DNA of 61,579 nt, the filler included, from Candidatus Woesearchaeota archaeon CG1_02_57_44 (lineage in GTDB: Archaea > Nanobdellota > Nanobdellia > Woesearchaeales > CG1-02-57-44): assembly GCA_001871415.1 (NCBI GenBank). It is 5 parts of 5 records of this genome, joined end to end, with 100 filler letters (N's around TTAATTAATTAA, not from the genome) between each part and the next. Parts side by side here need not be neighbours in the genome. Positions count along the whole stretch, not along the records: positions 1 to 28,595 come from MNWW01000037.1; 4 more parts are not named here. One strand, written 5' to 3'. The notes beneath the pieces are model-generated. The model was given only the letters and a program-made list of their open reading frames with translations. It did no database searches and was not told the origin of the DNA. The first letter of the stretch is position 1; the number at the start of each line of letters is the position of its first letter. The translations under genes and the position numbers were made by a program. Positions 10,665 to 47,459 of the stretch are shown in pieces.

Positions 10665-10785
10665 GTTTTACTTGTTTTTGCGCAAGAACTTTTAGAATTT
10701 TGAAACTACTTGAGAGTAGTATGCAATGTATAAGGAAGGTATAGCTAAAGACTTTTAACTGGAATTGACATTCCCGGGCATCCGA

Positions 10786-11121
10786 ATGGCGAGCAATCTA
10801 CAGTACGCAGGTGACGAAGGCGCCTTATGGTACGCGGGCATCCTGGTAGGAGATTCATACACATTACGTAGCATCACCCCGCTTACTGAGCGGGAAGCAC
10901 GTACGTACAACGACCCTACGGTGTGGTTTCTCAGACCCAGCGCCACGGGATTTGACGGCATCACGCAACATTCGCTTCTACGGGGCTTGTCACCAGCCCC
11001 CATACAAATCAACACGTTCCAGGTGCCTGTCGATGAAGATACCCATGCTGAAGTGGGCCCTGAAGGGCTCACCTCACTTCTCGATGCGTTGGTTGCTGCG
11101 CAAGAAGCAGCAAAACAATAA
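10786..11121 (+). CDS. hypothetical protein
   Basis: ORF of about 111 aa followed by a T-tract; no motif. Confidence 0.5.
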   Translation: MASNLQYAGDEGALWYAGILVGDSYTLRSITPLTEREARTYNDPTVWFLRPSATGFDGITQHSLLRGLSPAPIQINTFQVPVDEDTHAEVGPEGLTSLLDALVAAQEAAKQ

Positions 11122-11193
11122 TAAGCAGTGGTTTCTTTTTTCAGGCCAATTGCAGTCTATAAGTTGTGCAGTAGCACAATTGTCTGGAAACAA

Positions 11194-11217
11194 GGGTCTG
11201 TAGTCTAGGACTGTGAC
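11194..11217 (+). pseudogene. degenerate tRNA-Val 5' fragment (acceptor 5' strand plus D arm)
   Basis: GGGTCTGTAGTCTAGGACTGTGAC, a near copy of 11284-11308. Confidence 0.7.
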
Positions 11218-11239
11218 ACAAAAAATGACCTGGGAACAA

Positions 11240-11490
11240 GGGCCCGTAGTCTAGTGGCTATGACGCAAAGAAAAACCATGCAAGGGTCTGTAGTCTAGTG
11301 GCTATGACGTTGCCTTTACACGGCGAAGGTCGTCGGTTCGAGTCCGGCCAGACCCATGGTTTTTCTTGCGCGCGAAATCCCCTGGATTTCGCTGCGTTGC
11401 CTTTACATGCCAGGCTCTGCCTGGCGACCAGAAATGCACAGACATTTCTGTGCACGGCGAAGGTCTCCGGTTCGAGTCCGGACGGGCCCA
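11240..11490 (+). tRNA. interrupted tRNA-Val(TAC): segments 11240-11265, 11397-11407, 11455-11490
   Basis: Joined segments give a 73-nt cloverleaf with acceptor GGGCCCG/CGGGCCC-A, T stem TCCGG/CCGGA and loop TT-TAC-AC; inserts are 131 and 47 nt. Confidence 0.65.
11284..11356 (+). tRNA. tRNA-Val(TAC), intact, nested in insert 1 of the interrupted copy
   Basis: GGGTCTG/CAGACCC-A acceptor, TTGCC-TTTACAC-GGCGA anticodon arm, GTCGG-TTCGAGT-CCGGC T arm; no encoded CCA. Confidence 0.97.
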
Positions 11491-11586
11491 GTTTTTAATC
11501 CATTCTGAAAGACCAGCCAGCTGAGCAAAGCGAACGCTGGCTTTGCTTTGAACGACCTTTACACAAAAGGTCGCCGGACGGGCCCA
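11491..11586 (+). repeat. 96-bp tRNA-linked unit regenerating the tRNA-Val 3' end
   Basis: CCGGACGGGCCCA at 11478-11490 and again at 11574-11586; also holds an anticodon-loop remnant CCTTTACAC. Confidence 0.75.
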
Positions 11587-11674
11587 GGTCATTCTTGTGT
11601 ATGAACAACACAACACAATATTATGTCAGCCACCATGCAAAAGCCTTAAATGCAACGAGTTTCTTTTCAGGTCC

Positions 11675-11929
11675 ATGCCAAAGTACTGCATCTCGCACAA
11701 CAGACCGGATTGCATCGGCTGCGGCGCGTGTGCGGCAATCGCGCCCAAGAAGTGGCACATGGACGACGAGGGCAAGAGCCATCTGGAAGGCTCGAGCACC
11801 AACGATGACGGTTGGGAGCTGCTGGACATAAGCGATGATGAATTCCAGGAGCAGATGGACGCCGCCGAGTCCTGCCCGGTCAATGTCATCCACATCAAGA
11901 ACCTTGCTGATAAGAAAGAATTGATTTGA
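11675..11929 (+). CDS. ferredoxin (single Fe-S cluster)
   Basis: CIGCGACAAIAP...AAESCPVNVI. Confidence 0.93.
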   Translation: MPKYCISHNRPDCIGCGACAAIAPKKWHMDDEGKSHLEGSSTNDDGWELLDISDDEFQEQMDAAESCPVNVIHIKNLADKKELI

Positions 11930-16689: not shown

Positions 16690-16810
16690 CTGGACATCAC
16701 CCCCATTGCTTATGTGGCATCCATGGTTTATAATATTTACTCTAGGGAAAACAAATAGGTACGAAATGCGTCGGAGTTGACCAGGCGAGAAGAGGACGCT
16801 TAGAATGAAG

Positions 16811-16906
16811 TGGACCGGCCGGGGTACGAGGAATGTCAACGCATTCCTGGACTCCAGCCGAACCGAACACAAACAAACGCACAGCAACGCGCCCAGAAAG
16901 ACAATA
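16811..16906 (-). repeat. 96-bp tRNA-linked unit regenerating the tRNA-Ala 3' end
   Basis: TGGACCGGCCGGG at 16811-16823 and 16907-16919; hairpin AGGAATG/CATTCCT at 16829-16848. Confidence 0.75.
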
Positions 16907-16980
16907 TGGACCGGCCGGGATTTGAACCCGGAGTCTTCCCCTAGCCAAGGGGACACGATACCAGATTTCGCCACCGGCCC
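16907..16980 (-). tRNA. tRNA-Ala(GGC)
   Basis: GGGCCGG/CCGGTCC-A with G3:U70; TCCCC-TTGGCTA-GGGGA; TTCAAAT T loop. Confidence 0.96.
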
Positions 16981-17197
16981 ATTGCTCTCAGACTGTTCGT
17001 TCTGGTAAGCTTCTACCGTGCGATGATGCGTTGCTTCATCGCACTTGCCGTTGCGTGCCAGCCGAGCGCAACCAGCTGCCTGGTTTCGCCACCAACACAT
17101 GTGGGCGCTTTTTCCGAGAACCTGGTGGGGTTTAAAAAGATTATGGCCAATGCCAGCACTGCAAACTCATAAAAACACCAGGGAAAGTCCGAAGGTC

Positions 17198-47391: not shown

Positions 47392-47459
47392 TGGACTCGC
47401 CGGGATTTGAACCCGGAGTCTCCGCCTTGCGAAGGCGGCGTCATACCGGAGTAGACCAC
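47392..47459 (-). tRNA. tRNA-Ala(CGC), 5' end cut by contig end
   Basis: CCGCC-TTCGCAA-GGCGG; CCGGG-TTCAAAT-CCCGG; 3' CGAGTCC-A (U70). Confidence 0.92.

Follow-up and report, generated by a model that had tools for sequence, protein, structure and literature searches.

The tRNA-Val locus at 11194-11600 of the DNA analysed here (hereafter the 'window': 61,579 nucleotides (nt), filler included, in five parts joined end to end, from Candidatus Woesearchaeota archaeon CG1_02_57_44, GenBank assembly GCA_001871415.1) holds one intact tRNA gene within the interrupted body of another, and is most likely the scar of a gene replacement, rather than a tRNA spliced from another tRNA's intron. We suggest, with a probability of roughly 0.6, that the inner gene is the only working copy, and that the outer one is an older, intron-bearing tRNA-Val(UAC) gene, split by a tRNA-Val 'cassette' that is itself bounded by inverted repeats. 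The nesting as a whole had been noticed in an earlier, sequence-only reading, and a repeat search recovers all of the pieces listed there; that reading's reservation, that the outer copy may be a pseudogene, is one that we now adopt as the best account of it. Throughout, tRNA positions are those of the 73-nt tRNA-Val, 'outer' denotes the interrupted copy and 'inner' the intact copy; G000 is the window's genome, the other G-numbers are relatives in the same order, C-numbers are contigs, and L100, L101, L102 and L110 are metagenome contigs.

All features of the locus are given on the + strand. ARAGORN and Rfam (64.8 bits) find a single intact, intron-less tRNA-Val(UAC) gene, at 11284-11356. Around it lie three pieces of the outer gene: nt 1-26, with the acceptor strand GGGCCCG (11240-11265); nt 25-37, with the anticodon TAC (11395-11407; 13/13 identical to the inner gene); and nt 38-73, with the T stem TCCGG/CCGGA and the acceptor strand CGGGCCC (11455-11490). 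Joined by coordinates (11240-11265, 11397-11407 and 11455-11490), these yield 73 nt that ARAGORN calls as tRNA-Val(tac); the pieces join to a flawless cloverleaf, with Watson-Crick pairs at 7/7 positions of the acceptor stem and 5/5 of the T stem. Inner gene and outer join differ at seven positions (4, 6, 49, 50, 65, 67 and 69). The suggestion that these differences are compensatory holds for pairs 4:69, 6:67 and 49:65, which change together, but not for position 50, which changes alone and takes C50-G64 to U50-G64. In the repeat search, 11237-11265 matches 11281-11309 (93% over 29 nt), 11395-11407 matches 11308-11320 (13/13), 11448-11490 matches 11314-11356 (84% over 43 nt) and 11478-11491 matches 11574-11587 (14/14); within ±700 nt, blastn-short returns the fragment matches at E = 2e-8, 8e-8, 8e-5 and 1e-3.

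The insert that parts the first two outer pieces, at 25/26 (insert 1), contains the whole of the inner gene, held in a 'clamp' of complementary arms (11268-11280 and 11355-11367, 13/13), as had been proposed. The full left arm, CGCAAAGAAAAACCATG (11264-11280), begins with a CG that is also nt 25-26 of the outer gene; the right arm, CATGGTTTTTCTTGCG (11355-11370), contains a run of five Ts (T5) at 11360-11364 that is likely to act as an archaeal terminator; and the duplex between them has a predicted energy of -18.2 kcal/mol (z -3.1). Beyond the clamp, sequence and fold both give a perfect 9-bp hairpin, GCGAAATCC/GGATTTCGC (11372-11392), bracketed by the direct repeat TGCG. Insert 2 (11408-11454), which parts the second and third outer pieces at 37/38, is made of two hairpins (11409-11425 and 11429-11450), again as first described.

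Outside this lies a further shell, and the array thus has three tRNA 5' starts, at spacings of 46 and 44 nt. The outermost of these is fragment A (11194-11218), which runs from nt 1 to about nt 25, is identical over nt 1-15 (E 8e-5) and has a diverged D loop; at the other end is a tRNA-Val 3' remnant (11554-11586), consisting of an anticodon-loop-like hairpin and CCGGACGGGCCCA, which is without nt 39-43 and 49-60. The third shell therefore exists, but the two are not the matched pair that they were taken for, since fragment A carries an acceptor of inner type (GGGTCTG) and the remnant one of outer type (CGGGCCC), and, as we read them, the two strands would need two G-U wobbles in order to pair. 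Around the whole runs an outermost inverted repeat, the left arm of which (11216-11234) pairs with the right arm, CCCAGGTCATTCTTGTGT (11583-11600); it was found by inverted-repeat search, by folding and by duplex energy (-25.8 kcal/mol), is the outermost helix of the minimum free-energy structure, and its core arms (11221-11234 and 11583-11596) are 93% complementary; the pairing of the full arms had been noted in the sequence-only reading. Taken as one RNA, the region 11186-11605 adopts a fully nested fold of -180.6 kcal/mol (z = -7.2, 100 shuffles).

Assembly error does not account for the nesting. Run X6, which carries no flag as a possible source, has a Logan contig that spans 10881-11682 with 0 differences; contigs of runs X7 and X8 bridge parts of the locus; and the metagenome contigs L100, L101 and L110, compared by eye, match the window over 540 nt across it. 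The read joints 11265>11459, 11320>11467 and 11347>11459 were considered as spliced or empty-site forms and set aside, as other letters stand between their two sides; they probably represent the tRNA-Val genes of other organisms in the metagenomes.

In archaea, introns are marked by the bulge-helix-bulge (BHB) motif, two 3-nt bulges 4 bp apart, of which the relaxed form keeps the central helix. We scored candidates with our own script, which gives the pairs in the central 4-bp helix (H) and the pair runs in the flanking helices (h, h'), and which took in 169 junction combinations per relative. At insert 1 there is no BHB: whichever of the three tRNA-preserving registers is used, H holds 1-2 of 4 pairs, h 0-1 and h' 0, and since the central helix is lacking, relaxed forms are excluded as well as the strict ones that the sequence-only reading had been unable to draw. 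The same insert in three relatives (G095, G290:C57 and G026:C30) has no register-preserving junction among the four best of the 169 combinations, and a scan of the whole region 11150-11650 gives many chance matches of 10-12 points, none of them at the piece boundaries. Against this, genuine introns of the order score well (H,h,h'): 4,2,5 for tRNA-Met and 3,2,6 for tRNA-Trp in G000, and 3,6,6, 3,2,6 and 4,3,5 for the tRNA-Val introns of G032, G050 and G005, respectively. Insert 2 of the window scores 3,1,5; its H includes a U-U mismatch as well as two G-U pairs, and it is poorer than these controls (3-4, 2-6, 5-6).

Nor does the geometry suit a joining of split halves. The clamp (16 bp) abuts the 5' piece, and one or more hairpins of 20-76 nt stand between it and the 3' piece, so that a junction of the split-tRNA type cannot form. 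In split and tri-split tRNAs the complementary flanks abut the exon ends, a BHB marks the junction and each piece has its own promoter; here, a regex scan of 11100-11640 finds one TATA-like box for the entire array (CTATAAG, 11157-11163, about 31-37 nt upstream of fragment A), presumably the promoter of all of it, and no TATA-like hexamer between 11164 and 11283. Oligo-T runs terminate transcription in archaea, and there are two T5 runs here: the one at 11360-11364 starts 4 nt past the inner tRNA, and the one at 11492-11496 starts 2 nt past the outer 3' end. The first of these would argue against efficient read-through. The proposal that one transcript yields two tRNAs by splicing is hence not supported: insert 1 is without a BHB, the motif of insert 2 is degraded, and a T5 run follows directly on the inner tRNA.

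What the outer gene looked like before it was split is suggested by G005, which has an uninterrupted, outer-type tRNA-Val(UAC) gene. Its spliced form is 70/73 identical to the window's outer join, differing at position 32 and at the compensated pair 49:65, and its 5' part is identical to outer piece 1 at 26/26 positions. It carries a 45-nt canonical intron (BHB 4,3,5, as above) which aligns with insert 2, so that insert 2 is an old and genuine intron whose motif has been lost in the window. The G005 gene serves as the 'empty site', of the kind that integration scars are expected to have in a relative. In this sense the earlier suggestion of an intermediate in tRNA gene disruption is upheld in spirit: an intron-bearing outer gene is split at 25/26, the insert brings its own tRNA, and a relative retains the gene uninterrupted.

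The gene downstream of the G005 tRNA-Val is likely ScpA, as in G095 (the first 50 codons were compared by eye), and Pfam identifies ScpA genes adjacent to the nested loci in G095, G026:C30 and G290:C57, or at most about 2 kb from them. In G000 the ScpA-linked gene is a tRNA-Val(CAC) on contig C4, and the window at 11453-11606, which takes in the outer 3' piece, trailer and remnant, is 87% identical over 154 nt to G000:C4:25755-25908; this paralogy indicates that the window's outer gene was once complete, with its own trailer and remnant. The paralogue of the remnant is at about C4:25848-25888, and an imperfect hairpin in the outer-gene trailer (11508-11549) is likewise kept in the C4 locus. 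None of the window's seven flanking proteins was found by tblastn in the loci of 10 relatives, and ARAGORN finds no tRNA in up to 1.5 kb on each side of S10, a neighbour of the tRNA-Val array, in G003, G007, G052 and G095 (in G057 the contig is too short to tell). It follows that the window's site is not the ancestral one and that the ScpA-linked site is; the outer gene would thus have been copied from the ScpA-linked locus, or from a common ancestor of both.

The C4 locus has a history of its own (G000:C4:24913-26050, L024). Its tRNA-Val(CAC) gene is divergent from ScpA and is followed by a deleted remnant and two fragments, each of which starts at nt 25 and has a hairpin between TGCG repeats ahead of it. 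The acceptor 3' strands of these fragments differ, which suggests, as far as the sequences go, a serial replacement of the 25-73 part, anticodon included.

The arrangement recurs. Applied to 401 genomes of the order, a search for pairs of D-arm starts separated by 25-55 nt gave 30 places in 24 genomes, and at seven of these, in four genomes, the nested architecture is present: two in G000, two in G026, one in G095 and two in G290, to which the metagenome contig L102 may be added. The remaining 23 places were judged from the matched strings to be chance, and a reversed control pattern matched about equally often. A strict junction motif gave 36 matches in 185,579 species genomes; the three that are archaeal are the G095 and G290 loci, and the 33 in bacterial records are presumed to be chance. 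Among metagenomes, five of the 13 matching loci have the nested architecture.

These loci share a common design. From the 5' side it reads: tRNA-Val nt 1-26, GCAAAGAAA with 4-8 variable bases, 3-7 unpaired bases, and an intact tRNA-Val; and on the 3' side: the complement of the variable bases with TTTCTTGC(G), at least one hairpin set between YTGCG repeats, and tRNA-Val from nt 25 onwards, the right end of the cassette being …TTTCTTGCG. The GCAAAGAAA start of the clamp's left arm recurs in G095, in both loci of G290, in G026:C17 and in L102, and hairpins equivalent to the one at 11372-11392 stand between YTGCG repeats in G095, G290:C57, G026:C30 and G000:C4. In every nested case the junction is at 25/26, and of the four loci with a 3' piece, three (the window, G095 and G290:C57) have a CG on both sides; in G026:C30 it is not cleanly present. 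The inner parts of the clamps co-vary (AAACCATG/CATGGTTT, ATGTGA/TCACAT, ATGCAA/TTGCAT and ATTCA/TGAAT), the inverted repeats are 13-17 nt long, and in 6/7 loci the duplexes have energies of -14 to -24 kcal/mol. Such pairing is not a general property of pre-tRNAs: in 28 tRNA-Val genes of relatives the pairing of leader with trailer has a median z of 0.1, and of the 36 tRNAs of G000 only Val(tac) and one other stand out, so that we rejected that explanation of the clamp. Separately, a tRNA-Glu(TTC) gene (G000:C51:2374-2449) has, in its 30-nt leader, a stretch that resembles the D arm and the start of the anticodon stem of tRNA-Val, with an 8-bp pairing to its trailer.

The elongation factor EF-2 proteins of G095, G026 and G290 are, as a set, 71, 68 and 66% identical to that of G000, inside the 56-76% spread of 60 relatives, which implies that the nested genomes are not a tight clade. 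The outer genes of these relatives are in various states. That of G095 is a flawless cloverleaf, the second intron of which has a good BHB (3,4,5); in G290:C57 the outer pieces join to a sequence identical to the spliced inner gene, which has an intron in its T loop; and in G026:C30 there is a C-A mismatch in the acceptor and the second insert is in the T loop. In G026:C17 we read a 5' fragment, GGGCATA, with no complementary 3' strand downstream; in L102 the 5' fragment is mutated while the clamp is perfect; and G290:C15 has no 3' piece. As to the T-loop intron, the Val(TAC) and Val(GAC) genes of G290 (C57 = L062, 1533-2000; C15 = L055, -) have one and the same 38-nt intron where T loop meets T stem, at about 59/60, for which the best register-preserving BHB in Val(TAC) is 4,0,5, read here as a relaxed BHB. 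The gene of a nearby tRNA is interrupted at this position by a related intron, and together these form a family of non-canonical T-loop introns.

Synthesising these observations, we propose the following sequence of events. A resident, intron-bearing tRNA-Val(UAC) gene, of the type that is intact in G005, would have been cut at the centre of an ACGT palindrome (nt 24-27), and a cassette, comprising a complete tRNA-Val gene within inverted repeats of 14-17 nt (left GCAAAGAAA…, right …TTTCTTGCG), would have been set into the cut, the 2-bp CG repeat presumably marking its junctions. As the cassette supplies a replacement tRNA, such a disruption could occur without cost. Transcription may still start from the old promoter near 11157, run through the two dead 5' fragments as a leader of about 95 nt, and mostly end at the T5 run inside the right repeat, with RNase P and RNase Z freeing the inner tRNA from this transcript. 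All else would be debris, including the old canonical intron (insert 2), whose splice motif would later have disappeared. Replacement of this kind appears to have been repeated at this locus, giving the third shell, and to have taken place as well at further tRNA-Val genes of G000 and of three more families in the order; this recurrence points to a site-specific mechanism, and possibly a mobile one. Ordinary tRNA end processing should be available to the cell, since the RNA of RNase P (103.6 bits) is encoded in G000, as is an RNase Z-like protein (a 297-aa metallo-beta-lactamase, assigned by its HxHxDH signature alone). The gene for the latter lies head to head (G000:C8:21.4-23.0 kb, L033) with that for the splicing endonuclease EndA (about 21.4-22.1 kb), which is a single gene of alpha type, with one N-terminal and one catalytic domain.

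Several observations weigh against this explanation. The outer pieces of both the window and G095 make flawless cloverleaves, and the two outer copies differ by two compensated T-stem pairs (49:65 and 50:64), with no disruptive change, a pattern as compatible with continued selection as with recent, independent insertions; the second intron of the G095 outer gene, moreover, keeps its good BHB. We had at one point counted the alpha-type EndA as an argument against splicing, and have dropped it: one study (PMC5829648) links the alpha4-type EndAs of DPANN archaea with a relaxed substrate range and with disrupted tRNA genes, so that the type of enzyme argues in neither direction. No gene for an integrase, transposase or recombinase was found among 60 open reading frames (ORFs) lying up to about 8 kb from the nested loci in G095, G026 and G290, and no integrase or transposase among the seven scanned ORFs beside the window locus. 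The leader-plus-tRNA pattern has 0 matches in viral contigs; a looser pattern, of T loop plus trailer, has more than 120, and of 80 loci only two passed our filter, neither of them a tRNA-Val cassette, so that a viral origin of the cassette, sought by both patterns, was rejected. No free-standing cassette was found away from tRNA-Val genes. In G059, an inner-type gene has a weaker clamp (-12.3 kcal/mol, with one G-U pair) and no 5' fragment, which suggests that the paired leader and trailer may be a property of that gene lineage and act in the RNA, rather than being the ends of a transposon. Finally, as the loci of G095, G026:C30 and G290:C57 are all near ScpA, they could go back to a single, old insertion that has been retained.

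Of the other explanations, the one that survives best, while still in our judgement unlikely, is the accretion of classical attachment (att) sites, by which larger, integrase-bearing elements would repeatedly have entered the 5' and 3' parts of tRNA-Val and later been deleted, so that the nesting is a sum of separate events. Observations in G000 speak for it: serial 3' fragments starting at nt 25 stand behind the C4 Val(CAC) gene, and terminal 3' fragments with repeated trailers behind Val(GAC), Gly, Met and Ser. The Val(TAC) and Val(GAC) genes of G290 share their T arm along with the 38-nt intron, and the displaced 25-73 piece is without that intron, as expected if the 3' part had been replaced from an attP site. 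A precedent is the published model for Caldiarchaeum (PMC3293823), in which a 5' fragment of tRNA-Thr stands ahead of the regenerated gene and integration accounts for the gain of an intron at 24/25. At the locus itself, direct repeats of tRNA segments do bracket the insert and the inner tRNA is intact, as in an att scar; set against this, only 14-76 nt lie between the fragments in all eight loci, the inserts (47-181 nt) hold no element body, and there is no integrase nearby, in the 7 + 60 ORFs scanned. Nor would the ends of two independent elements be expected to complement each other and to co-vary from genome to genome, and the resemblance of the outer 5' and 3' pieces is to each other and not to the inner gene, which is what a single gene cut in two should show.

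We regard as improbable, more so than the accretion of att sites, the idea that the clamp and fragments are leader elements under selection, the clamp insulating or guiding the inner pre-tRNA and the fragments serving as decoy attachment sites or processing signals. It would account for a clamp that co-varies and is kept in L102, where the 5' fragment has decayed, for the clamp of G059, kept (with its G-U pair) in the absence of any fragment, and for the conservation of the clamp's GCAAAGAAA start across families at an EF-2 identity of 66-71%. The design is rare, though (4/401 genomes), the fragments themselves decay, and the matching 3' pieces are left without explanation. No archaeal pre-tRNA pathway is known to need a leader-trailer helix, though no systematic search for one was made, and this too counts against such a role.

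Least likely of all is a true 'Russian doll', kept by selection in several DPANN families, in which RNase P and RNase Z cut out the inner tRNA and the clamped outer halves are trimmed, ligated without a BHB at 25/26 and relieved of their 37/38 intron, to give two tRNA-Val(UAC) species per transcript: the perfect outer cloverleaves of the window and G095, the compensatory outer differences, a nested fold (z = -7.2, as given above) that brings the outer acceptor strands together, the sound second intron of G095, an order that handles non-canonical introns such as the 38-nt T-loop intron of G290 (4,0,5), and the relaxed specificity with which DPANN alpha4 EndAs are linked in PMC5829648 speak for it, and are outweighed by the lack of a BHB at insert 1 in the window and of a register-preserving candidate among the four best in three relatives, the 20-76-nt hairpins between clamp and 3' exon, the degradation of the window's second intron relative to its G005 homologue, the T5 run behind the inner tRNA, an outer anticodon that duplicates the inner one and so meets no need, and 5' fragments that have decayed or stand alone in L102, G026:C17 and G290:C15.

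Returning to replacement by a cassette, its nearest known counterpart is the tRNA-Thr of Caldiarchaeum subterraneum, for which Sugahara et al. (2012, PMC3293823) describe a 5' fragment, a 1.8-kb insert that bears a recombinase and the gain of an intron at 24/25, and set out a model by which introns and split genes arise when mobile DNA with tRNA sequence recombines with a resident gene. The two cases are alike in having a 5' fragment upstream of a complete copy and in a break, at 24/25, that adjoins the 25/26 found here; they differ in that the Caldiarchaeum insert is 1.8 kb long with a recombinase gene, its fragment possibly far away, whereas the present insert is of 120-181 nt, has a whole tRNA within inverted repeats and no recombinase near, and leaves both old halves in place. 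That integration leaves partial tRNA genes behind is well known, as in the Thermococcaceae (van der Gulik et al. 2023, PMC9897764).

The scars of integration of the SSV and pNOB8 types likewise show a functional tRNA beside direct repeats of its parts, and several tRNA loci of G000 resemble them; here, by contrast, the spacers are of tens of bases and not kilobases, nested fragments stand on both sides, and inverted repeats flank the live gene. The multi-intron, split and tri-split tRNAs of Thermoproteales and Nanoarchaeum have breaks at about 25/26 and at 37/38, and complementary flanks; the tri-split tRNA-Gly of Caldivirga, according to the sequence-only reading, is broken at 25/26 and 37/38. 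Unlike insert 1, however, the pieces of such tRNAs join through a BHB at the junction. A third comparison is with miniature inverted-repeat transposable elements (MITEs), which are likewise short and non-coding, with terminal inverted repeats and a duplicated target site: at the nested loci there are terminal inverted repeats of 13-17 nt (6/7 loci) and a 2-bp direct repeat of CG at the junctions (on both sides in the window, G095 and G290:C57). MITEs, by contrast, are dispersed in many copies and have a transposase of their own kind, whereas the cassette holds a functional tRNA gene and was found only inside or beside tRNA-Val, and its repeats may act in the RNA.

In the full-text literature, which does not extend to subscription journals, we found no report of a tRNA gene inside an archaeal tRNA intron. 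The present case is set apart by a miniature, gene-free insert with a whole tRNA between co-varying inverted repeats, which leaves both of the old halves in place and recurs at one position. How interruptions and splits came to lie at odd positions of archaeal tRNA genes is an old open question, and the leading idea, that mobile DNA with tRNA sequence is the cause, rests on very few natural intermediates. The present locus and its relatives supply a resident gene cut at 25/26, an insert with its own replacement tRNA, and an uninterrupted copy in a relative, and are as such of moderate interest as a natural intermediate on the way to non-canonical tRNA introns; if the insert were ever to gain a splice motif, the outcome would be a two-intron tRNA with a tRNA inside one of its introns. 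The tRNA loci of these small-genome archaea are also crowded with scars of fragments and hairpins, which annotators should not read as introns.

Such scars are common in G000, a DPANN archaeon with a genome of 1.53 Mb in 77 contigs (57% G+C, 82% complete). Displaced fragments are present at all three of its tRNA-Val loci, and several other tRNAs, including Ala(GGC), Ser(GGA), Gly(TCC) and Met, have copies of their 3' ends roughly 80-270 nt downstream. The hairpin AGAAATG-N6-CATTTCT, the second of insert 2, is one of a family of five, each member just ahead of a tRNA 3' fragment and four of them outside any tRNA. An 11-nt motif equal to the 3' end of tRNA-Val occurs 11 times in the genome, with 1.5 expected; eight of the occurrences are at tRNA loci, the Ser and Gly modules included, and two of these eight are one sequence at two contig ends.

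Some of these loci deserve individual mention. Elsewhere in the window (16800-16981, -), the tRNA-Ala(GGC) gene at 16906-16981 has, about 60-95 nt downstream, a member of the AGGAATG…CATTCCT hairpin family (16829-16848) and a 13-nt copy of its own 3' end, a module of the same type as that in insert 2. At G000:C40:3961-4350, behind a tRNA-Ser(GGA) gene, three units of about 53 nt, nearly identical to one another, repeat every 96 nt, each with an acceptor 5' strand, the tRNA-Val-3'-end motif, a hairpin AGGAATGCACA(A/G)ACATTCCT, and the 3' strands of the Ser T stem and acceptor; with its T-rich, variable spacers, the array looks like a row of 'gutted' tRNA-Ser copies. At G000:C44:59830-60200 (-, L032), tRNA-Thr(GGT) and tRNA-Val(GAC) are 1 nt apart, and the last 14-17 nt of the Val(GAC) gene, with its trailer, are copied twice, 154 and 189 nt downstream, where they flank hairpin-rich DNA. 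Similar copies of tRNA 3' ends with repeated trailers lie about 60-100 nt behind tRNA genes in G059:C12 (L002) and G036:C109 (L005), at 1590-1790 in each; judged by eye, the G059 copy stands behind a tRNA-Gly gene, and in L005 ARAGORN lists tRNA-Leu genes. Copies in these two genomes suggest that scars of this kind are a trait of the order.

As to the setting, positions 1-28,595 of the window are contig C10 of G000, and the metagenome runs that contain the window's DNA are from groundwater and an aquifer. The tRNA-Val array is flanked on one side by the row of EF-2, EF-1alpha and S10 genes and a small ORF, and on the other by a ferredoxin-like gene and a class I LysRS. The small ORF (10765-11121, +; 118 aa) lies directly upstream of the array, and has no match to a Pfam family even at E = 1, hence no link to a nuclease. 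On another contig of the window, at 47399-47459 (-), Rfam gives a tRNA match of 41.6 bits that covers model positions 7-64 only and has no ARAGORN call; this may be a partial or interrupted tRNA.

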